A stretch of DNA of 64,000 nucleotides. Origin: Parcubacteria group bacterium. GTDB taxonomy: Bacteria; Patescibacteriota; Minisyncoccia; Moranbacterales; UBA2206. This document shows, in pieces, positions 17,299 to 33,984 of this stretch (positions are counted from its first letter, which is position 1; the number at the start of each line of letters is the position of its first letter). Below the pieces are notes generated by a model, which did not search any database, was not told the origin of the DNA, and saw only the letters and a program-made list of their open reading frames with translations. The translations under genes and the position numbers were made by a program. The DNA lies in the NCBI GenBank assembly GCA_041671525.1, contig JBAZBJ010000001.1, positions 9,638 through 73,637 on the forward strand, read 5' to 3'.

Positions 17299-17331
17299 GA
17301 CACCCAGTGTCCTTTTGGACACTGGGTGTCC
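17299..17331. repeat. REPIN-like doublet hairpin (second copy)
   Basis: Identical to 16170-16202 including aaa flanks. Confidence 0.9.
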
Positions 17332-17336
17332 AAATA

Positions 17337-20102
17337 ATGATAATGCCAAAAGAAAATAAAAATATCTATAACCTGACTTCGGACGAAGTATTAAAGAGAT
17401 TTGATGCTTCGCTTCAAGGCCTCTCAATTCAGGAGGCGGAGAAGCGGCTCAGGGAATTTGGGGCGAATAAGTTGCAGCGCAAACAGAATTGGAAGTGGTT
17501 GAAATTGATTTGGAATCAATTTAATGATGCGTTGGTCTGGATTTTGTTGGTGGCGGCGGGGTTGGCGGCGCTTTTTCGGGAGTGGCGGGATGTGACGATC
17601 ATTTTGATCATTGTCGCGATCAATTCGATCATCGGCTTTTTGCAAGAATTCAAAGCCGAGCGGATTTTGGATAGCATCAAAAAATTGACTACTGACAAGG
17701 CAGTGGTGATTCGCGGCGGGGTGCGCCAGGAAATTGAGGCGGCGGAATTGGTGGTGGGCGACGTGGTGGCGCTCACTAGCGGCGACAGCGTGCCGGCCGA
17801 TGGGTATCTTATCGAAGCGTACGATTTGCGCGTCAATAGTTTTATTTTTACCGGTGAATCGAAACCGGAAACCAAAAAAGTCGGCGTGATGGAAAATCAT
17901 CCGGTTTTGGCGGACATTGATAATATGGTTTTTTCCGGGGAAACGATTGCGACGGGCGAGGCGAAATTTGTGGTGACGGGCACGGGCATGGGCACGGAAC
18001 TGGGGAAGATTGCCAATCTGACCCAGGAAGTCAAAGAAGATCTGACGCCGATGCAGAAGCAGATGCGTTCTTTGGGGCGCCAAGTGACGATTCTTTCGAT
18101 TTTGATTGGAGTCGTGGTGATGATTGCCGGGCAATATTTCAAGATGTCACTCTATGACAACTTTTTGTTTGCCTTGGCCTTGGCGGTGTCGGTTGTGCCG
18201 GAAGGATTGCCAGCCGCGATTTCAGTGGCGCTGTCACTCGGAATGAAGCGCTTGCTCAAGGAAAATGTGCTGGCCAAAAAATTGAACGCCGTGGAAACGC
18301 TGGGCTCGGTCAACATTATCTGCACGGACAAAACCGGCACGATTACGAAAAATGAATTAATGGTAACTCGGGTGGTGGTGAATGATGAAATCCTGGAAGT
18401 TTCCGGCTCGGGCTATGAACCAGTCGGCAACTTCTCAAAAAATGGAAAAATAATCAAGACTGGTGAAATTGAAAATTTGGAATTGCTGATGCGGATCGGG
18501 ACTTTGTGCAATGGGGCAAGCCTGCTGAAGGAAGGTGGACAGTGGAAAATCATTGGTGATCCGACTGAAGGCGCGATCGTGGTAGTTGGCAAAAAATATA
18601 ATGACGCGGATGGCTATTTTGTCAAAGGCGAAACGAAAATCACCGAAAATCCTTTTTCCTCCGAGAGGATGCGGATGAGTGTGGTGTATAAGGGTGATTT
18701 GGGGGTTCCGGGAAGTTTGGGAATAGTTTCTTATGTGAAGGGTTCACCGGATGTGCTTTTGGAATTGTGCACACAAAAAAAAGTTGGTGACAAAATTTCG
18801 GAATTTACGCCAGCGGAAAAAGAACAGACCAAGGAAATTTATAACCAAATGTCAGCGCAGGCGTTGCGGGTGTTGGCGTTTGCGTATCGTGAATTACCCT
18901 CACCCCCAGCCCCTCTCCCAGGGGGCGAGGGGGGTTTTAGCGTTGGGGAAGCAGAAAAAAATCTTATCTGGGTAGGGATGATGGCGATGATTGATCCGCC
19001 ACGGCTGGACGTGACGGCGGCCATTGCCGAATGCAAGACGATGGACATCAAGGTTATTATGATTACCGGCGATTATGAAATCACCGCCAAAGCCATCGCG
19101 AAAAATATCGGCTTGATTGATGACAAAAATAAATATGAAATTATCAATGGAAAAACACTGAGCATTTTGAAAGATCGGGAAGTTTATCAAAAAATCAAAG
19201 CGGGGGATGTGGTGTTCGCGCGCATCGCGCCGGAACAGAAGTTGCGGATTGCGACCATTTTGAAAAACAACAAACAGGTGATTGCGATGACCGGCGACGG
19301 GGTCAATGACGCGCCGGCGTTGAAATATGCGGACATCGGGGTGGCGATGGGAATCATCGGCACGGATGTGTCCAAAGAAGCCGGCGACATGATTTTGCTG
19401 GATGATAATTTTGCTTCGATTGTCCATGGCATCAAGGAGGGGAGGACGATTTTTCAAAATCTCAAAAAATTTGTGCACTATGTTTTGACTTCTAATGCCA
19501 GTGAACTTTTGACCGTAATTTTTGGCGTGCTGCTGCAAATCCCGGCGCCGATCATGGCGGTGCAGATTTTGTCGATCGATCTGGCGACGGATGTTTTTCC
19601 ATCTTTTTCTTTGGGTCTGGAGCCGCCGGAGCCCGGGACGGACAAAAAAGTTATTAATTCCAAAGGCGCAATCATTGGCTGGAAAGGCTTTAGGCGCATC
19701 ATTTATCTGGGCATCATTATGGCCACCGCCGGAACAGTGGCCTTCCTCTGGTCGATGCTGCGCGGCGGCTGGTATTTCGGCGAGGCCGTGACGGCCGACA
19801 TGGCGCTTTATGTGAAGTCCACCACGGTGACCTACGCGGTGCTGGCCATGACGCAGATGGCTAATCTGTTGCAATCACGCAGTGAAAAATTGTCGCCGTT
19901 TGAACTCGGATTTTTCAAAAACAAATATGCGATTGGTTCAATTTTCATCTCAATCGCAATTCTGCTATCATTCATGTATGTGCCGCTGTTGCAAAAATAT
20001 CTGCACATGAGCCCGATCGATTGGAAAGATTGGCTGGCAGTGGTTGTATCAGTTATAGCAGTATTCTTGTGGGAGCAGGGGCGAAAAGCGGAAGAAAAAT
20101 AA
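17337..20102 (+). CDS. P-type cation-transporting ATPase (Ca2+/Mg2+-type, P2-like)
   Basis: TGES (FTGESKP), phosphorylation site ICTDKTGTITKNE, hinge MTGDGVNDAPALK; 10-TM layout; ATG 17337 preferred because 17307 lies in the REP hairpin. Confidence 0.9.
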   Translation: MIMPKENKNIYNLTSDEVLKRFDASLQGLSIQEAEKRLREFGANKLQRKQNWKWLKLIWNQFNDALVWILLVAAGLAALFREWRDVTIILIIVAINSIIGFLQEFKAERILDSIKKLTTDKAVVIRGGVRQEIEAAELVVGDVVALTSGDSVPADGYLIEAYDLRVNSFIFTGESKPETKKVGVMENHPVLADIDNMVFSGETIATGEAKFVVTGTGMGTELGKIANLTQEVKEDLTPMQKQMRSLGRQVTILSILIGVVVMIAGQYFKMSLYDNFLFALALAVSVVPEGLPAAISVALSLGMKRLLKENVLAKKLNAVETLGSVNIICTDKTGTITKNELMVTRVVVNDEILEVSGSGYEPVGNFSKNGKIIKTGEIENLELLMRIGTLCNGASLLKEGGQWKIIGDPTEGAIVVVGKKYNDADGYFVKGETKITENPFSSERMRMSVVYKGDLGVPGSLGIVSYVKGSPDVLLELCTQKKVGDKISEFTPAEKEQTKEIYNQMSAQALRVLAFAYRELPSPPAPLPGGEGGFSVGEAEKNLIWVGMMAMIDPPRLDVTAAIAECKTMDIKVIMITGDYEITAKAIAKNIGLIDDKNKYEIINGKTLSILKDREVYQKIKAGDVVFARIAPEQKLRIATILKNNKQVIAMTGDGVNDAPALKYADIGVAMGIIGTDVSKEAGDMILLDDNFASIVHGIKEGRTIFQNLKKFVHYVLTSNASELLTVIFGVLLQIPAPIMAVQILSIDLATDVFPSFSLGLEPPEPGTDKKVINSKGAIIGWKGFRRIIYLGIIMATAGTVAFLWSMLRGGWYFGEAVTADMALYVKSTTVTYAVLAMTQMANLLQSRSEKLSPFELGFFKNKYAIGSIFISIAILLSFMYVPLLQKYLHMSPIDWKDWLAVVVSVIAVFLWEQGRKAEEK
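18897..18936 (+). repeat. GC-rich imperfect palindrome embedded in-frame in the ATPase gene
   Basis: ccctcacccccagcccctctccc-agg-gggcgaggggggtt; cccctctccc / gggcgagggg pair with one mismatch; translated PSPPAPLPGGEGG. Confidence 0.7.
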
Positions 20103-23079: not shown

Positions 23080-25713
23080 ATGGCATTTTTTAGCAGTATT
23101 TTTGGCTCAAATACACGGGAAATCAAGAAACTTCAACCCATCGTGGACAAGATCAATTCCTTCGGTCCGGAGTATCGCAAGCTGTCCGATGAAGAGCTGA
23201 AAGCCAAAACGCAAGAATTCAAGGAGCGCATAACCAAAGGAGAAACGCTGGATGAAATTTTGCCGGAGGCTTTTGCGGTGGTGCGGGAAGCGGCGGACCG
23301 GGTGATTCAGGAGCGGCATTTTGACACGCAGCTAATCGGCGGCATCGTGCTGCACAGCGGCAAGATTGCGGAAATGAAAACGGGTGAAGGCAAAACCTTG
23401 ACCTCGACTTTGCCGATCTATTTGAATGCGCTCTCTGGCCACGGTGTGCACGTGGTGACCGTCAATGATTATTTGGCCAAACGCGATTGCAACTGGATGG
23501 GTTCCATCTTCAATTTTCTGGGTGTGTCCACGGCCTGTATCATCCATGATGCGTCATATCTGTATGAACCGAAAATTTTGGATGCCAACGAAGTGACGGT
23601 GGAGATGGAAAATCTGCGGGAAGTTTCACGGCGCGAAGCGTATGCGGCCGACATTACCTATGGCACTAACAATGAATATGGTTTCGATTATTTGCGCGAC
23701 AATATGGTGCCGAGTCTGCCACAGATGGTGCAGCGCGAACTCAATTATGTGATTGTGGATGAAGTGGATTCCATCTTGATCGATGAGGCGCGCACGCCGC
23801 TGATCATTTCGGCACCGGACACGGAATCGACCAAGCTCTATCAGCAATTTGCGCAACTCGTGCCCAGATTGAAAAAGGATGAAGATTTTGAGGTGGATGA
23901 AAAAATGAAAGCCGTGGTCATCACGGACGCGGGAATTTCCAAAATGGAAAGCTGGTTGGGCGTGGGCAATATTTATGAAAGTGGCAAGATAAATTATGTG
24001 CATCATCTGGAACAGGCCTTGAAGGCACAGGTGATTTTTCAGCTAGATCGTGATTATGTGGTCAAGGACGGCGAAGTGATTATTGTGGATGATTTCACTG
24101 GCCGGTTGATGCAAGGGCGTCGCTACAGTGAGGGTTTGCATCAGGCCATTGAAGCCAAGGAAAAAGTGGCGGTGCAAAAAGAATCACGGACGCTCGCGAC
24201 CATCACTTTTCAGAATTATTTCCGCATGTACAACAAAATTTCGGGCATGACCGGCACGGCGCTGACGAGCGCGGAAGAATTTTTCAAGGTATACAAGATG
24301 GACGTGATGGAAATCCCGACCAACAAGCCGCTGGTGCGTAAAGATTTGCCGGACGTGGTGTATAAAACGGAAAAAGGTAAATTTGATGCCATCGCGGAAA
24401 AAATCAAGGAATTGAACCAGACCGGGCAGCCGGCGCTGGTGGGCACCATTGCCATTGAAAAATCAGAATATCTGAGTGCGCTTTTGACGCGCCACGGCGT
24501 GCCCCACGAAGTTTTGAACGCCAAAAACCACGAACGGGAGGCACAGATTGTGGCCAAAGCGGGGCAGAAAGGCTCAGTGACCATTGCCACCAACATGGCG
24601 GGACGCGGAACCGACATCAAGCTGGGTGAGGGTGTGCGGGAAGTGGGCGGGTTGTATATTATCGGCACCGAGCGGCACGAAGCGCGCCGCATCGACAATC
24701 AGCTGCGTGGCCGCGCCGGTCGTCAAGGTGACCCGGGTGTGTCCGAATTTTATGTTTCGCTGGAAGACGAATTGATGCGGCGTTTCGGCGGTGACAAATT
24801 GAAAAGCATGATGGATCGCCTGGGCTTGCCGGAAGATCAGCCGATCCAGAACGGCATCATTTCCAAAACCATCGAAAACGCGCAATCGAAAATTGAAGGT
24901 TTTAACTTTGATATTAGAAAACACGTCTTGGATTATGACGACGTGATGAACAAACAGCGCGAAGTGGTGTATAAAAAACGGAAAGAGATTTTGGAAGCGC
25001 AAGACACCAAGAATGAAATGCTGGAAAACATCAAAGAAGAACTGGAGCGGCTGGTATCTTTTCACGCGGTGGGGGAAGAAGGCGAGTGGCAGATCAAGGA
25101 AATTTTTGAGAATTTCAAGAGTATCGTGCCAGCAGAGGAAGGAGTCTTGGTGAAAATGGAAGAAATCCAAAACAACAAACGGGAAAATTCGGCGGAGAAG
25201 ATCACGTCAATGGTGGAATATTTGGTCGGCCTGGCCAAGGAGAATTATAACAAAAAAGAGCAGGAAGTCGGCACGGATCAGCTGCGCTATTTGGAAAAAT
25301 CCATCATGCTGCAAACCATCGACATGATGTGGATGAATCATCTGGACGAGATTGATTACTTGCGCGAAGGCATCGGGTTGCGTGGCTATGGTCAGCGCGA
25401 TCCATTGATCGAATACAAGCGCGAAGCGTTTGGGATGTTTTCGCATCTGATGGAAAATGTCCGCTCATCGATCGTGCACACAATTTTCAAGATCAATGTC
25501 GTGGCGGCTCCACAGACGGAAGCACAACCGAAAAACTTGCAATTCAAAGGCGCGGCGGAAGAAGTGGAACAATTCGGCGCGGCCAAGGAGGCGGACACGA
25601 ATCAGAAATCTGAAGCCAAACAGATGCCAATTATTAATAAAGATAATGTGGGCAGGAATGACCCGTGCCCGTGCGGCTCAGGCAAGAAATATAAGAACTG
25701 TTGTGGGAAGTAG
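23080..25713 (+). CDS. secA: preprotein translocase ATPase SecA
   Basis: N-terminus SIFGSNTREIKKL, Walker A MKTGEGKTL, DEAD-like VDEVDSILIDEARTPLIIS, C-terminal zinc finger CPCGSGKKYKNCCG. Confidence 0.95.
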   Translation: MAFFSSIFGSNTREIKKLQPIVDKINSFGPEYRKLSDEELKAKTQEFKERITKGETLDEILPEAFAVVREAADRVIQERHFDTQLIGGIVLHSGKIAEMKTGEGKTLTSTLPIYLNALSGHGVHVVTVNDYLAKRDCNWMGSIFNFLGVSTACIIHDASYLYEPKILDANEVTVEMENLREVSRREAYAADITYGTNNEYGFDYLRDNMVPSLPQMVQRELNYVIVDEVDSILIDEARTPLIISAPDTESTKLYQQFAQLVPRLKKDEDFEVDEKMKAVVITDAGISKMESWLGVGNIYESGKINYVHHLEQALKAQVIFQLDRDYVVKDGEVIIVDDFTGRLMQGRRYSEGLHQAIEAKEKVAVQKESRTLATITFQNYFRMYNKISGMTGTALTSAEEFFKVYKMDVMEIPTNKPLVRKDLPDVVYKTEKGKFDAIAEKIKELNQTGQPALVGTIAIEKSEYLSALLTRHGVPHEVLNAKNHEREAQIVAKAGQKGSVTIATNMAGRGTDIKLGEGVREVGGLYIIGTERHEARRIDNQLRGRAGRQGDPGVSEFYVSLEDELMRRFGGDKLKSMMDRLGLPEDQPIQNGIISKTIENAQSKIEGFNFDIRKHVLDYDDVMNKQREVVYKKRKEILEAQDTKNEMLENIKEELERLVSFHAVGEEGEWQIKEIFENFKSIVPAEEGVLVKMEEIQNNKRENSAEKITSMVEYLVGLAKENYNKKEQEVGTDQLRYLEKSIMLQTIDMMWMNHLDEIDYLREGIGLRGYGQRDPLIEYKREAFGMFSHLMENVRSSIVHTIFKINVVAAPQTEAQPKNLQFKGAAEEVEQFGAAKEADTNQKSEAKQMPIINKDNVGRNDPCPCGSGKKYKNCCGK

Positions 25714-27108: not shown

Positions 27109-27183
27109 CAGCTCTCATTAGTCCTGGTTTTGAAAAAATATCAGGCGGGAAACAGGGGGCTGTTTCCCTTTCGCCAAAAAAAT

Positions 27184-28104
27184 ATGGAAGACGAAATATC
27201 ATCGATAATTCCAAACACGACTCAAATTCCACATCTCATCATACGAGGGTGGATGCCTCTTTTGAGCGACGTAGAACTCAGAGTGCTTCTTGTTGTAGCT
27301 GATCAGACGTTGGGGTGGATCGAGGATCCGGAAACAAAAAGACGCAAAGAAAAGGATTGGATAAGTCAGAGTCAGCTGATGAAAAAAATAAGCCGGAGCG
27401 ATCGGGCGATTCAAAACTCGCTCAAACGATTAGTGGACGAACTGAGAATTATCCAAGCCCATGATGAATTAGGAGAGCTTTTGGATTCACCGCAAAAGCG
27501 CATGAAGTGCGGCGGAAAAATATTCTATCGTCTCAGTCTGAAACATCCTCATCAAGCCACCCCCGAAAATAGTTCGGGGGCAGTAAAATCCGCTGAGCAT
27601 TCACAACCCCCGAAAAGTCTTCGGGCGAAAAAATTTCGGGCTACAAAAGAAACTGTTTTTACAAAGAAGTCCTATCGGACAAGCGCGCTTGCCGGGGATA
27701 AAAAAATAATTCCAACCCGCTATTTTTTCGGAAAGTTCAGGCAGCTGTGTCAGGCAATCAGAAATACTGAGCCGATCTTCGTGAAGTTCAAGGACGGAAA
27801 ACTATTAAGTCACGCACTATGCCATTTGACTGAATTCCAGTTGGAGCTAGAACTCATATGGTTTTTGCAAAACAAAAAAGAAATGAATCCGAGCTTGGGA
27901 GCGGCGCTGTGCAAAGAGGTGATCAGAGATTTTATAAAAGCAAGTTATCGGGAGTATGGATTTTACAGAAATTTGGAACGGGTCGCGATGCAACATAGCA
28001 GTACAAAAAATACAAATGCAACCAATGAAGTCGAAGAAGAGAGGAAAATGATTGAAGCGCTTGAAAGACTAAAGAAATCATTCAGTGTTTTGCGGAGAAA
28101 TTAA
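27184..28104 (+). CDS. hypothetical protein, possible phage replication/wHTH DNA-binding protein
   Basis: N-terminal LSDVELRVLLVVADQTLGW...SQSQLMKKISRSDRAIQNSLKRLVDE resembles wHTH replication-organiser N-domains (weak, from memory); ATG 27184 or TTG 27130. Confidence 0.35.
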   Translation: MEDEISSIIPNTTQIPHLIIRGWMPLLSDVELRVLLVVADQTLGWIEDPETKRRKEKDWISQSQLMKKISRSDRAIQNSLKRLVDELRIIQAHDELGELLDSPQKRMKCGGKIFYRLSLKHPHQATPENSSGAVKSAEHSQPPKSLRAKKFRATKETVFTKKSYRTSALAGDKKIIPTRYFFGKFRQLCQAIRNTEPIFVKFKDGKLLSHALCHLTEFQLELELIWFLQNKKEMNPSLGAALCKEVIRDFIKASYREYGFYRNLERVAMQHSSTKNTNATNEVEEERKMIEALERLKKSFSVLRRN

Positions 28105-28154: not shown

Positions 28155-29411
28155 ATGAAACATTTAGATTTATTTTCTGGTATCGGCGGTTTTGCCTACG
28201 CAATCGATCAGGTATGGCCTGGAGCCGAACATATATTTTGCGATAACGATAAATTTTGCCAGCAAGTTTTGAAAAAACACTGGCCCAACTCGAAAATTTA
28301 TGGAGATATACGAGCTATACGGTCAAGGAGATTTATTGCCGACTCCGACAGTGACAGATGCATCGGAAGGGGCAAGAAAATCAACACAACAAAAACCAAC
28401 AAGCAAACACAGCGTAACCTTAAAAAATATTATGCAAAAATTAACATCCTTACCGGAGGCTTCCCATGTCAACCTTTCTCCCAAGCCGGAAAAAGGCGAG
28501 GCACAGAAGATGACCGTTATCTCTGGCCAGAAATGCTTCGAGTCATCCGTCTTACAAAACCGAACTGGGTCATTGCTGAAAATGTGCGCGGATTACTTAC
28601 TATGCAAGGCGGAGTGGTATTCGAACAAGTGTGTCTTGACCTGGAAGATTCCGGCTACGAAGTCCAGCCGTTTATTATTCCAGCTGTCGCCGTCAACGCT
28701 CCGCACAGAAGAGACAGGATCTGGTTTGTTGCTCACGCCATCAGCGATACAGCCGATAGAAAGAAAAAATGCGGAAAGCTATCTGAAGCGGCAGATAAAC
28801 AGGAACAAAACGGGACACAATACGGTTCCTCCCGGCAATCTCTACGAACAGCTTTTGGCGAAAGGTGCAAAAGATTTAAGAAAAACGAATCTGTGGCCCA
28901 GGATGTTGGGAACGCCAAAAGCGCAAGACAGTCGAGCATCAATGAAAGACAGGGGAAAGCACAATATGGGAGAGCAGGTGCAGGCAGCGATAAATGCATT
29001 ACTCCCAACGCCAAGAGTAAGCGAAAAGGAAGGCTCTCCAGTGAAAAATGCGGAACTGCGAAATGGACGGTGGAGCAGAATGAATCAAAAGGGAGTGAGA
29101 TTCGGAGTGAAGGTAAAAGATGTGTTGGCGGTGTTGCCTACGCCGAGAGCAGGAAATCCGGGAAGCAGACCAAATGGCAAGGGTGGGAAAATTTTGAACG
29201 AAGAGATTGGGAAAGAATCTGGATTGAAGTTGCAGCCGAACTTTGTGGAGTGGATGATGGGCTACCCGCAAAATTGGACGGACTTGAATTATCAAAATCA
29301 AGACATCGAATAGAAAGATTAAAAGCCCTCGGAAATGCAATTGTTCCACATGTGGCAGTTGAAATTATGAGAGCGATTAAAGAAGCTGATGAAGGCATTA
29401 GCAATACTTGA
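28155..29411 (+). CDS. DNA (cytosine-5)-methyltransferase, phage type
   Basis: Motif I DLFSGIGG, IV GGFPCQPFS, VI AENVRGLL, VIII PHRRDRIWFVA, X LKALGNAIVP, all in one uninterrupted frame. Confidence 0.8.
   Translation: MKHLDLFSGIGGFAYAIDQVWPGAEHIFCDNDKFCQQVLKKHWPNSKIYGDIRAIRSRRFIADSDSDRCIGRGKKINTTKTNKQTQRNLKKYYAKINILTGGFPCQPFSQAGKRRGTEDDRYLWPEMLRVIRLTKPNWVIAENVRGLLTMQGGVVFEQVCLDLEDSGYEVQPFIIPAVAVNAPHRRDRIWFVAHAISDTADRKKKCGKLSEAADKQEQNGTQYGSSRQSLRTAFGERCKRFKKNESVAQDVGNAKSARQSSINERQGKAQYGRAGAGSDKCITPNAKSKRKGRLSSEKCGTAKWTVEQNESKGSEIRSEGKRCVGGVAYAESRKSGKQTKWQGWENFERRDWERIWIEVAAELCGVDDGLPAKLDGLELSKSRHRIERLKALGNAIVPHVAVEIMRAIKEADEGISNT
28300..29313 (+). CDS. 337-codon ORF in the +1 frame fully embedded in the C5-MTase gene (5 LPTP-type repeats and a FVEWMMGYPQNWT box); coding status unresolved
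   Basis: No stop for 1014 nt; LLPTPTVTD, LLLTPSA, MLGTPKAQD, LLPTPRVSE, VLPTPRAGN, LQPNFVEWMMGYPQNWTDL. Confidence 0.4.
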   Translation: MEIYELYGQGDLLPTPTVTDASEGARKSTQQKPTSKHSVTLKNIMQKLTSLPEASHVNLSPKPEKGEAQKMTVISGQKCFESSVLQNRTGSLLKMCADYLLCKAEWYSNKCVLTWKIPATKSSRLLFQLSPSTLRTEETGSGLLLTPSAIQPIERKNAESYLKRQINRNKTGHNTVPPGNLYEQLLAKGAKDLRKTNLWPRMLGTPKAQDSRASMKDRGKHNMGEQVQAAINALLPTPRVSEKEGSPVKNAELRNGRWSRMNQKGVRFGVKVKDVLAVLPTPRAGNPGSRPNGKGGKILNEEIGKESGLKLQPNFVEWMMGYPQNWTDLNYQNQDIE

Positions 29412-29522: not shown

Positions 29523-29780
29523 ATGGAACAAGATCAGAACTTATTGGAGGAGATTTTGCGGGCTATCGTTAATTATCCTGCAGAGGTGCAGGTAGAAAGG
29601 CACGTCGATGAAATGGGAGTTCTCCTCTCTGTAAAACTTGGAGAAGGTGATGCTGGAATTGTGATCGGAAAAGACGGACGCGCTATTAAGGCGATACGCG
29701 CGATTATGAGTCTTGTCGGTCGCAAGAGCAAAGCTCGTCTTAGTGTTCGACTCGATGTGCCGGACCTGCCAAGAGCGTAG
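29523..29780 (+). CDS. KH-domain RNA-binding protein, phage-block paralog of 9764..10087
   Basis: VQVERHVDEMGVLLSVKLGEGDAGIVIGKDGRAIKAIRAIMSLV aligns residue-for-residue with the chromosomal KH protein. Confidence 0.7.
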   Translation: MEQDQNLLEEILRAIVNYPAEVQVERHVDEMGVLLSVKLGEGDAGIVIGKDGRAIKAIRAIMSLVGRKSKARLSVRLDVPDLPRA

Positions 29781-29867: not shown

Positions 29868-30173
29868 ATGAACAGAACTAAAAAAGGAAAACTTTTCGAG
29901 CGGAAAGCATACGATATTATTCTGCAAGAAGGTTATTGGATTGAAAAAGCTCGTGTTGCGAAATTTCAACCCCAAGATCTTTTCGGATGTTGGGATTTGA
30001 TAGCTGTCGATAAGAAAAATATTCGCTTTATTCAAGTCAGCACTGAACGCTTCAGTTCGCGATCAAGGGCTGATCAGGAAAGAATGATGGCTTTTCCCAA
30101 ACCGCCGCATACATCAAAAGAATACTGGCGATGGAATGTTAAAAAAGATAAATTCGAAATAATAACAATATGA
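29868..30173 (+). CDS. hypothetical protein, possible PD-(D/E)xK / resolvase-like nuclease
   Basis: GKLFERKA...DLFGCWDLIAVD...IRFIQVS spacing resembles E...D...(E/Q)xK nucleases; weak. Confidence 0.3.
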   Translation: MNRTKKGKLFERKAYDIILQEGYWIEKARVAKFQPQDLFGCWDLIAVDKKNIRFIQVSTERFSSRSRADQERMMAFPKPPHTSKEYWRWNVKKDKFEIITI

Positions 30174-30466: not shown

Positions 30467-30622
30467 ATCCATCGATAGCGTTTCTATCCCCCGTGAACTT
30501 TTAGCCGAAACTCAAAGTCGACGCATTGATATGATTCAAAGGGAAGAAGAAATTGAAGTGAATATGGATCTTTCGAAATGGATGCGCTTTTTAATTCGAA
30601 TCAAATTATTCTTAACACGTTT

Positions 30623-31894
30623 ATGGATAAAAATTCAAAAATAATAAAAATTTCAGATCTCAAACATCCGTCCTATAACCCGCGGGAAATCAAGAGTGAT
30701 GACGTCGATGCTTTGAAGCGGTCTATTGAAAGATTCGGACTTCGGGGACTCGTAACGATCAACACTCATAAGGGTCGCGACGGTTTCATTGTGGGCGGTA
30801 ACTTGACTGTTATGGTACTTAAGGAGTTGGGGTGGGAAACGATACCGAAAGAAAACGTGGACCTGGTAGACCTTAACGAAAAAGAAGAAAAAGCATTGAG
30901 TCTGGCATTAAATAAAATTGCCGAACGACGAAGCTGGAATGATGAAAAGTTGGCTGAACTTATGGTAGAGCTCAACCAGTCAGATTTTGACTTGACAGTA
31001 ACTGGTTTCAATGAGGTTGAAATCAGTAATCTTCTTGATACGCAGATACTTGATGAGCCGGAAGACGAGGAAGATAAAACTGCTGAAGAGGAATATGAGG
31101 AAATAAAAAAACCGGAGTCAAAATATGGCGAGATATATAAGCTGGGAAGGCATCGTCTCATGTGCGGGGATGCAACGAAAATAGAGGATGTGAAAAAACT
31201 GATGGAGGCTGTAAAGGCTGATATGGTTTTTACTGATCCGCCGTATAACGTCGCTCATGTGAGTCATGAAAAAAGCGGTAAATTTCCTACAGAGCAGGGA
31301 AGGATTTTGGGCGACCAACAGAGCCAGGAAGACTTCGAAGCATTCAGTGAAAAAGTGTTTGCCAATTACCATGAAATTCTGAAACCCGGCTCGACGATTT
31401 ATGTCTGCACCGGCTACACTAGTTATCCGCTCTGGTACTACGAAATGCTGAATTCGGGCTTTGAATTTTCATCGACGATAGTGTGGGTCAAACCATCTTT
31501 TTCTATCGGATGGAGCGATTACAAAAAACAATACGAACAGATCATGAAAGCCAAGAGAAGCAAGAGCAAAACCAAGGCTCAGCCATTAATATATGGCTGG
31601 AAAAAGGGCGAGAGGCATTTTTTCTTTGGAGATAATAACGAGAGTGACGTGTGGGAATTTCCCAGAAAGGCAGTTACTAAAATGGAGCATCCGACGGAAA
31701 AACCAGAGTGGCTCATCATGCGGGCGATTAAGAATTCCAGCCGAATGGGTAATATCATCGTTGATTTCTTCGGCGGATCAGGCAGTACGCTTTTTGCCGC
31801 AAACAAACTAGGTCGCACCTGTTATCTGTTGGAACTTGATCCGTGCTGGTGCGATGTCATTCGAAAACGTTGGAACAATGTAAAGCAAAAATAA
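30623..31894 (+). CDS. ParB-like N-terminal domain fused to N6/N4 DNA methyltransferase
   Basis: ParB-N-like KISDLKHPSYNPREI...GLRGLVTIN; MTase motif IV FTDPPYN and motif I DFFGGSGST; ATG 30623 preferred over 30578. Confidence 0.8.
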   Translation: MDKNSKIIKISDLKHPSYNPREIKSDDVDALKRSIERFGLRGLVTINTHKGRDGFIVGGNLTVMVLKELGWETIPKENVDLVDLNEKEEKALSLALNKIAERRSWNDEKLAELMVELNQSDFDLTVTGFNEVEISNLLDTQILDEPEDEEDKTAEEEYEEIKKPESKYGEIYKLGRHRLMCGDATKIEDVKKLMEAVKADMVFTDPPYNVAHVSHEKSGKFPTEQGRILGDQQSQEDFEAFSEKVFANYHEILKPGSTIYVCTGYTSYPLWYYEMLNSGFEFSSTIVWVKPSFSIGWSDYKKQYEQIMKAKRSKSKTKAQPLIYGWKKGERHFFFGDNNESDVWEFPRKAVTKMEHPTEKPEWLIMRAIKNSSRMGNIIVDFFGGSGSTLFAANKLGRTCYLLELDPCWCDVIRKRWNNVKQK

Positions 31895-31907: not shown

Positions 31908-32471
31908 ATGGCAAAGCTGGCAATTACAACATCTAAAATGCCTGGAGAGACGGAGCAGCAATACACCGCCTGGCTTTTGTATTGTGAAGCAGGAAGTCTT
32001 AGAAAGACATTTGGCCTGTGGGACAAGGTTGGGCAAAGCTTGGGTGAAGCTGGGGCAGAATTCGTCGACAGGCTGGGCAAGAAACCGAGCGATACGACTC
32101 TGGAGAATTGGTCGAAAAAGTTTCGCTGGGTCGAACGTAAAGAGCTCAAACTAACCGAAGATTTGGAAGGACTTCGTAAAAAGGCGCAAGAAATAAAACA
32201 GAAAAAAGTTTTTGTGATAGGTGAGATTTTCTGGGAAAAAATTCAGTCACTGAAGAAGCAGATGAAAAAAGGCGAAGGTGCGACAGTGGATGAGATTAAA
32301 AAATTATGGGAAATGTTTCGCACAGAGATGGGGGAGTCTTTGGGCAAGCATGAGCTGAGCATTAGGGAAGAAGAACAGAAGCCACCGACTGCAGAAGAGC
32401 AGGAGCTAGGAGAAGCAATAGACGAATCTATCAAAGCATTTTATGAACGAAAAGGAAAAGCAAAAAAATAG
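31908..32471 (+). CDS. hypothetical protein, possible terminase small subunit (position-based)
   Basis: Immediately upstream of and overlapping the terminase large subunit; helical, basic N-terminus. Confidence 0.35.
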   Translation: MAKLAITTSKMPGETEQQYTAWLLYCEAGSLRKTFGLWDKVGQSLGEAGAEFVDRLGKKPSDTTLENWSKKFRWVERKELKLTEDLEGLRKKAQEIKQKKVFVIGEIFWEKIQSLKKQMKKGEGATVDEIKKLWEMFRTEMGESLGKHELSIREEEQKPPTAEEQELGEAIDESIKAFYERKGKAKK

Positions 32472-33984
32472 CATTTTGTATTGGATCAAAGAGAATGGAG
32501 TAAAGAGTGAAAGCGGTGATCCGATTGAATTTTCCGATCACCGCTTCATGTTGGATATTTATTCAGACCGTACGCCTGTGCAGGTTATACGCAAGGGTTC
32601 CCAGATCGGAGCAAGCACGATGGAGATTTTGCGGGCAATTCATGCAGCACGGTTCTGGGGAATCAATCAGATATACACCCTTCCCACGGCTGATGATGTG
32701 GCTGAGTTCGTGAAAAGCAAAGTAAATCGCATCATGAAAATAAATGCATGCATTCTGGACGGAGTGAGCGGCAGGGACGTGGATTCCATTGAGCAGAAAC
32801 AGATAGGAAAATCATTCTTGTTTTTCAAGGGAACTTACACGGAAAAAGAAGCGATCATGCTCACGTCTGACCGCAACATACATGACGAGCTGGATAAATC
32901 CAAGGCCGAGGTTATTCGCGATTATACGAGTCGCATGGGATTTTCAAAAATAAGAAGCCAACATTACTTCTCGACTCCGACTGTTCCCGATGTGGGAGTT
33001 GACAGACTTTTTGGACAATCTGACCAGAAGCACTGGCGCTTCAATTGCCCTCATTGCGATCATGAACAGCACATGGAATGGGAAAAGAACGTGGACCGTG
33101 AGCGAAGAATCTATATTTGTCAGAAATGCAGAAAGGAAATAACTCCGCGCTGGGCATGTGATAACGGAAGATGGGTGGCAAGATATCCAGGAGAAGCGAT
33201 AAGCGGATATTGGATAAGTCAGATGATATGCCCATGGCGCTCAGCAGCTGACCTTCTGACGGAAGAATCCAATGCCGAGGATTTGCGGTATTTCTATAAT
33301 TTCGTTTTGGGATTACCGTACATTGCCGCTGATCAGAAAATTCCCCAGGGACTGTTTCTTCGTAATATCACCAATGAGGAAGCTGAAACCTCAGGCTGGA
33401 ACGTTATGGGAGCGGACACGGGAGACGAGAATCACGTAGTGATTGGCAATGCCAAAGGGATATTCTGGATCGGCAAAATCAAGGATCGCCCGAATAAAAC
33501 ACGTTGGGAATATATGGCTGAACTCATTCAATTTTATGATATACGGGTTTGCGTTATTGATGCCATGCCGTGGACTGAAGAAGCACTGCGTCTGGCTCGT
33601 CAGTTTCCGTATCGCGTCTATGTCAATTTTTACAAGGAAGACCCGAAAATGCTGGAGGTCATTCGCTGGAGCGATGAAGCGGAAGAAGGCGAAAAAGTTT
33701 TCGAGGAAGAGGTGAAGGTGCTCACTTCGCGTAACCGTATTATTGACGATACCATCTCCTCATTGCGTAGAGGCGAGATAAAATTTGCCATGAAGCCAAA
33801 TGACGCGACTTTTCGAATGCTCATAGACCATTCTCAGACAATGTATGCAAGAACGGTAACAAACCAATACGGTCAGGAAAAACGAGAATGGGAAACGACT
33901 ACCGGCACGGATCACGCCTGGCACGCCCTAATTTATTGGCATATAGCTTTCAAAAAAAGATTAAAATATGAACCGAACAAATAA
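32443..33984 (+). CDS. phage terminase large subunit (GpA-like)
   Basis: N-terminal ATPase region (VIRKGSQIGAST, LTSDRNIHDELD), central CPHCDHEQ...CQKCRKE zinc ribbon, C-terminal nuclease-like half; resembles Terminase_GpA family (from memory). Confidence 0.65.
   Translation: MNEKEKQKNSILYWIKENGVKSESGDPIEFSDHRFMLDIYSDRTPVQVIRKGSQIGASTMEILRAIHAARFWGINQIYTLPTADDVAEFVKSKVNRIMKINACILDGVSGRDVDSIEQKQIGKSFLFFKGTYTEKEAIMLTSDRNIHDELDKSKAEVIRDYTSRMGFSKIRSQHYFSTPTVPDVGVDRLFGQSDQKHWRFNCPHCDHEQHMEWEKNVDRERRIYICQKCRKEITPRWACDNGRWVARYPGEAISGYWISQMICPWRSAADLLTEESNAEDLRYFYNFVLGLPYIAADQKIPQGLFLRNITNEEAETSGWNVMGADTGDENHVVIGNAKGIFWIGKIKDRPNKTRWEYMAELIQFYDIRVCVIDAMPWTEEALRLARQFPYRVYVNFYKEDPKMLEVIRWSDEAEEGEKVFEEEVKVLTSRNRIIDDTISSLRRGEIKFAMKPNDATFRMLIDHSQTMYARTVTNQYGQEKREWETTTGTDHAWHALIYWHIAFKKRLKYEPNK

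Follow-up and report, generated by a model that had tools for sequence, protein, structure and literature searches.

A phage-type C5-cytosine DNA methyltransferase gene from Parcubacteria and the probable second subunit nested in its +1 frame

Why does a phage-type DNA methyltransferase gene stay open in two frames of the same strand for about 1 kb, and are both frames made into protein? This question is raised by a locus in a 64,000-nucleotide (nt) stretch, hereafter the window, of contig JBAZBJ010000001.1 from a Parcubacteria group bacterium (assembly GCA_041671525.1, positions 9,638 to 73,637). All coordinates below are those of the window, and all its features described here are on the + strand. 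Frame A (28155..29411, 418 amino acids, ATG start) encodes the large domain of a C5-cytosine DNA methyltransferase (MTase) with motifs I–VIII and X, while frame B (28300..29313, 337 amino acids, ATG start) is +1 relative to A, lies wholly inside it, and encodes a proline-repeat variable region and motif IX. An earlier sequence-only reading had reported both open reading frames (ORFs) and had suggested overprinting, programmed frameshifting, or an evolutionary frame switch caught midway. We have found both ORFs open at the coordinates it gave. The six frame-B motifs it listed, all checked against the sequence and the translation, are also where it placed them, i.e., LLPTPTVTD at 28333-28359, LLLTPSA at 28726-28746, WPRMLGTPKAQD at 28894-28929, LLPTPRVSE at 28999-29025, VLPTPRAGN at 29131-29157 and LQPNFVEWMMGYPQNWTDL at 29230-29286. 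Since both frames are open under code 11, an alternative genetic code in the window is rejected. In the reading that we favour, with a probability of roughly 0.8, the locus encodes a nested alpha/beta MTase of the M.EcoHK31I type, which is assembled from two chains. Frames A and B are therefore called alpha and beta.

We have counted the mismatches by the codon position of frame A (A1, A2, and A3, which are B3, B1, and B2, respectively) in 18 disjoint pairs of related loci, and have repeated the count in an independent set of 19 pairs from genomes selected with frame A. At the 5′ end, which belongs to A only, the proportions at A1/A2/A3 are.16/.12/.49, that is, the wobble of A. From the beta start to motif IV the pattern is mixed (.27/.14/.36). 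This part holds the first segment in which beta is primary (28333..28433), with the N-terminal LLPTPTVTD and KSTQQKPTSKHSVTLK of beta, while frame A is low-complexity filler (alpha residues 63-93). Over motifs IV–VIII (28446..28736), where alpha is primary and frame B is read through, the wobble of A returns in a damped form (.14/.07/.29; replicate.17/.08/.32). In the variable segment between motifs VIII and IX (28746..29207), the wobble is that of B and no signal is left in A (.33/.16/.16; replicate.375/.147/.102). Actually, a single comparison of the window with one related locus (L008) already gives 75/18/13 mismatches there. From motif IX to the beta stop, both wobbles are raised and the shared second position is low (.22/.10/.24; replicate.26/.12/.23), and the 3′ end belonging to A only shows the wobble of A again (.15/.07/.42). 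The selected frame thus alternates A, B, A, B, both, A along the gene, and both frames are selected together only over ~80 nt at motif IX. Overall, each of the two frames is conserved and open and shows purifying selection specific to it, and the motifs are split between them in a complementary way.

The openness of the two frames was assessed by recoding one frame synonymously and counting the stops in the other in 62 loci, which are mutually related, so that the combined openness probabilities are only indicative. Over the variable segment, no frame-A stop is seen against ~270 expected (4.3 per locus; mean probability of being open 0.025), and over motifs IV–VIII 126 frame-B stops are expected but none is seen. 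In its third frame, the overlap contains a mean of 19.7 stops per locus among these homologous loci. For the window alone, A stays open over the variable segment in 0.3% of the trials in which B is recoded, and B stays open over motifs IV–VIII in 5% of those in which A is recoded. The overlap therefore goes beyond chance, as had been supposed from its length. That each frame stays open where it is not selected is expected if both are translated end to end, and is not required by frameshifting.

The nested layout is widely conserved. In a main set of 87 loci, most of which were gathered with a frame-B profile, B is A+1 in 87/87 and both ORFs are intact in 85/87. In a second, unbiased set of 80 loci from bacterial genomes, gathered with frame A only, 78 have a nested +1 ORF with beta-type motifs, and in the remaining two the frame-B ORF is retained next to an A that is broken. 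The hosts include Patescibacteria, Bacteroidota, Firmicutes, Proteobacteria, Planctomycetes, Verrucomicrobiota, Omnitrophota, and Acidobacteriota. By tblastn, A and B each point to one shared site in the genomes of 54 Paenibacillus larvae phages and of Bacteroides phages, with ~30% identity; in Paenibacillus phage Tadhana, both nested coding sequences (gp54/gp55) are annotated as 'DNA-cytosine methyltransferase'. Six diverged loci viewed by eye all contain both ORFs. Beta has been found only with an alpha-type gene, in ~170 loci. On metagenome contigs the gene caller has kept frame B only, with gaps of ~140 nt where frame A begins.

Certain members of the family are irregular. Two metagenome proteins (P0017 and P0051) are in-frame fusions of the alpha N-terminus to beta. 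In L098 a 1-nt frame change in the variable segment swaps the two tails, in L163 a stop lies within motif IV, in L035 and L072 beta or alpha is split in two, and in L027 the beta ORF extends ~470 nt beyond the alpha stop. These members may be indel errors, pseudogenes, or real variants. Four Bacteroides genome loci (L159, L161, L162, L166) have three in-frame alpha stops, all of which are TGA at the Trp positions of homologues. With TGA read as Trp, alpha is complete (406-426 amino acids), and the nested beta frame contains no TGA. This suggests, from the sequences, that they are TGA-recoded phages or prophages, or that their alpha synthesis depends on a suppressor tRNA.

Beta also has a conserved start codon of its own, from which it would be initiated independently of alpha. 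In the window, the alpha codons Y49-G50-D51-I52 (TAT GGA GAT ATA, 28299..28310) contain the beta ATG (28300-28302), which is formed by TAT GGA. Among the loci with the alpha motif Y/H-G/D/E-D-I, the first beta ATG is at +1 of the Tyr or His codon (TAT/CAT + G) in 34/59, and the loci in which Tyr is TAC use a different ATG further upstream. A Shine-Dalgarno-like motif (GGAG/GAGG/AGGA, 5-18 nt upstream) precedes 49% of the beta starts, compared with 15% of the other ATG triplets in the same genes.

What does each frame encode? Frame A matches PF00145 (E=3.4e-46, 158.6 bits, cut-off 22), TIGR00675 dcm (E=4e-37, 128.5 bits, cut-off 100.65), and phrog_363 (E=2e-65), with ~150 extra residues relative to the PF00145 and phrog_363 profiles. 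Motif I (DLFSGIGGF, 28167..28193, binding S-adenosylmethionine, AdoMet), motif IV (GGFPCQPFS, 28455-28481), motif VI (ENV, 28578-28586), motif VIII (PHRRDRIWFVAH, 28701-28736), and motif X (RLKALGNAIVP, 29316..29348, just 3′ of the beta stop codon TAG at 29311-29313) can be read directly from the translation in the order given before, and they include FxGxG (I), PCQ with the catalytic Cys (IV), ENV (VI), QxRxR (VIII), and GN (X). The protein is 100% identical to one annotated as DNA (cytosine-5-)-methyltransferase in a Parcubacteria metagenome-assembled genome (MAG). The likeness of its tail to those of short phage Dcm enzymes has also been borne out: the pure A tail matches phrog_363 positions 283-320 (E=2e-6), and the tail LCGVDDGLPAKLD is conserved. 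However, a C5-MTase is expected to have a target recognition domain (TRD) and motif IX between VIII and X in the same polypeptide, and alpha has neither there. The alpha profile aligns to the large domain of M.HhaI (12-66, 66-176, and 298-314, motif I falling in residues 12-66, motifs IV–VIII in 66-176, and motif X in 298-314, YKQFGNSVV), and skips the small domain (177-297).

The AlphaFold2 (AF2) model of alpha is confident at residues 1-62, 94-197, and 371-418. The predicted local distance difference test score (pLDDT) is about 90 at motif I and 72-91 at motif X, but about 30 at residues 198-370 and below 50 at residues 63-93, which are exactly the segments where beta is primary. The low-confidence stretch 198-370 extends to 29264, and over the variable segment frame A reads as a linker rich in K/R/E/S/G. 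In Foldseek searches, the large domain matches M.HhaI, M.HaeIII, DNMT1, and MET1 over ~200 columns (E about 1e-10). According to the model, the alpha residues between motifs VIII and X would form a disordered linker of ~170 residues in place of the small domain.

Frame B matches phrog_1008 over amino acids 12-332, nearly its full length (E=3.5e-28). It has 332 homologues at E<=1e-3 in a collection of 5.8 billion proteins. Of 1.84 billion cluster representatives, 33,682 match a beta profile at E<=1e-3, and 3,186 still do so at E<=1e-30. When beta and its enterobacterial and mycobacteriophage counterparts (described below) were scanned against Pfam and NCBIfam, no family was returned. The two observations that the sequence-only reading had named as fatal to its proposal, i.e., a frame B without homologues and stops in frame B of orthologous genes, are thus not what we see. 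The N-terminal LLPTPTVTD is conserved in many homologues, while 'MTxxSGxKC' and 'GSGLLxTP' of beta are +1 images of alpha motifs within 28446..28736. The variable segment carries repeated [LW]xPTPxAxD modules (in the window at 28894-28929, 28999-29025, and 29131-29157), with 0-8 PTP modules per locus. That the proline repeats are better conserved in B than in A, as had been noticed, holds in the larger set, where B-specific motifs are kept although A is not.

The segment selected in both frames (29208..29286) contains LQPNFVEWMMGYPQNWTDL of beta (29230-29286) over the conserved alpha tail W352...LCGVDDGLPAKLD (29208-29279). A chimera made of the beta tail (286-337) followed by alpha motif X (387-418) was searched against PF00145 and PHROG. 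It matches PF00145 positions 273-323 with E=5e-3 and 16.7 bits, under the Pfam cut-off of 22 bits, and matches families of single-chain phage MTases across both halves (phrog_116 441-492 with E=2.5e-7; also phrog_10223, 16528, and 26324). The pure alpha tail has no PF00145 match, and in phrog_116 only its motif X matches. Because the chimera matches span both halves and the pure alpha tail lacks the PF00145 match, these comparisons identify LKLQPNFVEWMMGYPQNWT of beta as motif IX, which in ordinary enzymes stands in frame just before motif X. The last PTP module lies ~30 amino acids before motif IX, where single-chain TRDs have a T-L/I-T-A motif (read in L169 and L170). In M.HhaI, the TL motif of the TRD presumably occupies the position corresponding to this last module. 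The PF00145 match from motif IX did not extend back to the last PTP module, so the homology of the PTP module with the TL motif of canonical TRDs is a positional argument only.

Similar pairs are found beyond the clade of the window. Three enterobacterial loci contain a nested +1 ORF with W-PTP-TASD modules and QLNPxxxRWLMGxP: the MTase of Enterobacter plasmid pTO42E (721-1653), in which the beta ORF ends 16 nt past the alpha stop; gene 58 of phage N15 (locus 881-1609), in which the +1 beta lies nested inside the annotated cytosine methyltransferase gene; and E. coli phage fTaEco01, in which both genes have been called and beta is annotated as 'putative Mte8-like protein' (L171, L173, and L174, respectively). 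Across these three, the nested betas are either unannotated or labelled 'Mte8-like'. The enterobacterial beta matches 240 phage records, including those of Escherichia, Klebsiella, Rhodobacter, Salmonella, Burkholderia, and Xanthomonas. In hhalign comparisons, the window-type beta profile matches the enterobacterial beta with a probability of 98.5% (E=4e-15) and gp76 of Mycobacterium phage Noelle with 98.3% (E=1e-14). In Noelle (gp77/gp76), alpha stops just after motif VIII, and a +1 ORF that overlaps it by 182 nt carries PTP modules, motif IX, and motif X. This pair is an M.AquI-like variant, which could represent an intermediate in evolution or be a case of a single frameshift. Many mycobacteriophages are listed with 'DNA methylase (x2)'. 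In the single-chain controls, Raoultella phage M26a and Streptococcus phage pST, motifs IX and X are in frame with each other. We found no functional description of nested phage methyltransferase genes, or of the 'Mte8-like' label, in the open-access literature.

Based on the above analyses, the two-chain reading can be spelled out as follows. Alpha would be translated from 28155 to 29411 and give the AdoMet-binding catalytic large domain (motifs I–VIII, then X), in which the linker would be filler whose sole requirement is to contain no stop codon. Beta would initiate on its own at ATG 28300 inside the YGDI codons of alpha. Its part over the catalytic-core DNA would be a poorly structured N-terminal arm, and the rest would supply what alpha lacks, i.e., the variable [L/W]xPTPxAxD module array, presumed to recognise the target, and motif IX. 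By analogy with the experiments on M.EcoHK31I, the two chains would then join non-covalently into a complete enzyme, for which both should be needed. We lean to a role of the beta variable region in target recognition, since nothing else between motifs VIII and IX is under selection, it holds anything from 0 to 8 modules, and its last module stands at the position described above. As for the origin, the pair has likely arisen by fission of a single-chain ancestor through frame changes, and the mycobacteriophage form is a possible intermediate.

Several observations weigh against this two-chain reading. The conservation of beta over motifs IV–VIII is mostly imposed by alpha, and the single-chain MTase of Streptococcus phage pST is also open in +1 over motifs IV–VIII, so that openness over these motifs alone is weak evidence. 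The beta start of the window and its clade has no Shine-Dalgarno-like motif but an A-rich leader. For beta alone, AF2 gives a low-confidence model (pLDDT 59), in which residues 160-170, 250-280, and 310-330 form confident islands. Neither a fold search with this model nor a profile search against PDB sequences found a PDB match, and the identity of beta as the small domain thus rests on motif IX, position, and complementarity; the Pfam score of the chimera is, as given above, sub-threshold. Both products in the window organism are known from sequence alone. In addition, the feature-by-feature likeness to M.EcoHK31I is drawn from the published description of that enzyme, whose TRD is assigned to alpha in the literature.

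The pST locus itself (L169, 1352-1771) has a 139-amino-acid +1 ORF across motifs IV–VIII that is annotated as 'methyltransferase' and ends right after VIII; as it lacks motif IX, the call is probably spurious. Its openness shows that, in +1, the catalytic core is by nature stop-poor.

How do other explanations fare? Programmed frameshifting would produce one polypeptide, which follows A through motif VIII, takes the variable region and motif IX from B after a +1 shift, and shifts -1 back to A for motif X. It would restore the canonical order I–VIII, TRD, IX, X, and it fits the single-chain relatives, in which the B-type motif IX and the A-type motif X are contiguous, as well as the mycobacteriophage relatives, in which a single shift within the 182-nt overlap would give one chain. 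However, two efficient shifts are needed here, and the conserved PTP-type GSGLLxTP of B shares its nucleotides with motif VIII of A, so that one chain cannot hold both. Frameshifting also leaves ~170-250 A codons untranslated, yet A is open in 62/62 loci with a probability of about 0.025 each, and B stays open upstream as far as its conserved ATG, which a frameshift does not need. M.EcoHK31I, moreover, functions as two separately expressed chains. Canonical slippery heptamers are present in the window only at 28422, 28764, and 28953 (B frame) and at 29189 (A frame), and none is at a needed junction. Among the 62 loci, heptamers from motif IX to the beta stop are not enriched (10 loci vs ~7 expected), and neither are A/T homopolymer runs after motif VIII (9 vs ~8). 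With no conserved slippery site at the junctions and both frames open well past them, we regard programmed frameshifting as very unlikely. A frame switch caught midway is not supported in the form in which it was raised, as the arrangement is stable across phyla, though it is plausible that a single-chain ancestor once underwent two frame changes and so gave rise to it.

Beta might also be real without being an MTase subunit, for example an overprinted regulator, DNA-binding factor, or anti-restriction factor. The absence of a Pfam or NCBIfam family, the largely non-globular prediction for beta alone, and the fast evolution of its variable repeats would suit such a gene. Nevertheless, beta holds motif IX, the sole canonical motif absent from alpha, in its canonical place just before X; in the loci where it was found it always accompanies an alpha-type gene; in mycobacteriophages a sequence of the same beta type runs on into motif X; and M.EcoHK31I provides a precedent for a subunit. 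An independent function of beta is accordingly improbable in our judgement. There is next to no chance that frame B is non-coding and open merely through purine-rich composition and frame-A conservation, or the result of assembly indels or a pseudogene. Stops are indeed less frequent in purine-rich sequence, few occur in +1 over the catalytic core (where recoding leaves the frame open with a probability of about 0.11, and where a conventional MTase is open too), and a few MAG loci have indels (L098, L163). But in the variable segment the substitutions gather at the wobble of B and A has no codon-position signal, B-specific motifs are kept where A is not conserved, the same architecture recurs in ~165 independent loci including isolate phage genomes, and hhalign links distant beta clades with a probability of 98%. 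Composition as the only cause is ruled out by the codon-position switch, and sequencing indels by the recurrence in isolate phage genomes. The genuine overprinting of two proteins, one of the possibilities first raised, is the one that the data support, with both frames open in ~165 diverged loci, the codon-position switch, and the conserved beta start.

The two-chain layout was already known from one E. coli enzyme, M.EcoHK31I, and what is new here is its scale (>30,000 beta-like cluster representatives, including phage N15) and the near-total lack of annotation of beta. Thousands of phage, prophage, and plasmid genes annotated as 'DNA cytosine methyltransferase' are probably half-enzymes, the partner being an unannotated +1 gene. 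Gene callers keep one frame or the other, which affects methylome prediction, the cloning of phage methylases, and REBASE-type inference of specificity. The same-strand overlap of 0.6-1.3 kb is conserved across bacterial phyla and has a clear functional rationale, and, owing to the alternation of its primary frame, it is well suited as a natural test case for dual-coding detection methods. Together with the M.AquI-like mycobacteriophage form and its +1 overlap, it suggests a route from single-chain to split and nested enzymes, and the filler linker of alpha is suggested to let the beta recognition region vary freely. It is conceivable, and we offer this as a tentative idea only, that a nested or +1-overlapping beta is the normal state of a very large superfamily of phage, prophage, and plasmid C5-MTases, with target recognition placed in the overprinted beta. 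If so, the PTPxAxD modules may serve in recognition as exchangeable or tandem units, and the assignment of the M.EcoHK31I TRD to alpha would have to be reconsidered.

The gene is located in a phage or prophage module, with a replication-initiator O-like gene upstream (27130-28104) and a ParB-methyltransferase, then the small and large terminase genes downstream. The ParB-methyltransferase (30578-31894) is a second DNA methyltransferase, 1.2 kb downstream; it is a fusion with a ParB-like nuclease domain (phrog_498 with E=6.5e-124; phrog_620, ParB-like, with E=4.7e-36) and directly precedes the terminase genes (31908-33984). Two small ORFs without PHROG matches lie between the two methyltransferases: by eye, 29523-29780 looks like a KH-type RNA-binding domain (…GIVIGKDGRAIKAIRAI…), and 29868-30173 looks like a small PD-(D/E)xK-type nuclease (…DLIAV…IQVS…). 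Further upstream are two large phage genes, one encoding 877 amino acids of the function-unknown phrog_32805 (23080-25713, E=1e-282) and the other a 931-amino-acid ATPase of phrog_12316 (17307-20102, E=2e-165).

Among known systems, the closest to the window is M.EcoHK31I, which was reportedly described by Lee, Kam and Shaw in 1995 and which the sequence-only reading had not recognised as a precedent. It is a two-polypeptide C5-MTase of E. coli HK31, whose beta gene lies wholly inside the alpha gene in another frame; alpha carries motifs I–VIII, motif X, and a predicted TRD, beta carries motif IX, and both chains are needed (PMC2836561, PMC3404938). Its beta initiates at internal ATGs, and the beta N-terminus mediates the association with alpha (PMC2836561). 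The window has the same features, with beta nested in alpha on the same strand in an alternative frame, motifs I–VIII and X in alpha, and motif IX in beta (significant against PHROG, sub-threshold against Pfam). The differences are that in the window it is beta that carries a conserved variable region, while the alpha segment between VIII and X has no amino-acid-level selection and is predicted to be disordered, unlike the TRD placed in M.EcoHK31I alpha; that beta is long (337 amino acids, 81% of alpha); and that the gene belongs to a phage replication module, where no restriction gene was seen next to it. A search of 5,426 E. coli genomes with the catalytic-core DNA gave no match.

The other natural split is M.AquI, said to have been reported by Karreman and de Waard in 1990. 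Like the mycobacteriophage 'DNA methylase x2' pairs, it is a C5-MTase naturally split after motif VIII into two chains, with I–VIII in alpha and IX-X in beta (PMC3404938). In the M.AquI type, alpha ends just after VIII and beta, which has the distal TRD besides IX and X, is not nested, whereas motif X of the window is in frame A. The conventional single-chain enzymes M.HhaI and M.HaeIII, and those of Raoultella phage M26a and Streptococcus phage pST, share the catalytic large domain and motif set with the window, but keep the TRD and motif IX in frame between VIII and X, where the window has the presumed recognition region and motif IX in the +1 frame. As in viral overprinted genes, two proteins come from one stretch of DNA, the constraint is asymmetric, and the secondary frame is disordered or of low complexity. 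Unlike in those genes, the origin is likely to be gene fission and not de novo birth, the products would belong to a single enzyme, and over the length of the gene the primary frame changes five times. Finally, the multispecific C5-MTases of SPR/phi3T have tandem TRD modules with one target each, and the beta of the window family has 0-8 PTP modules per locus.

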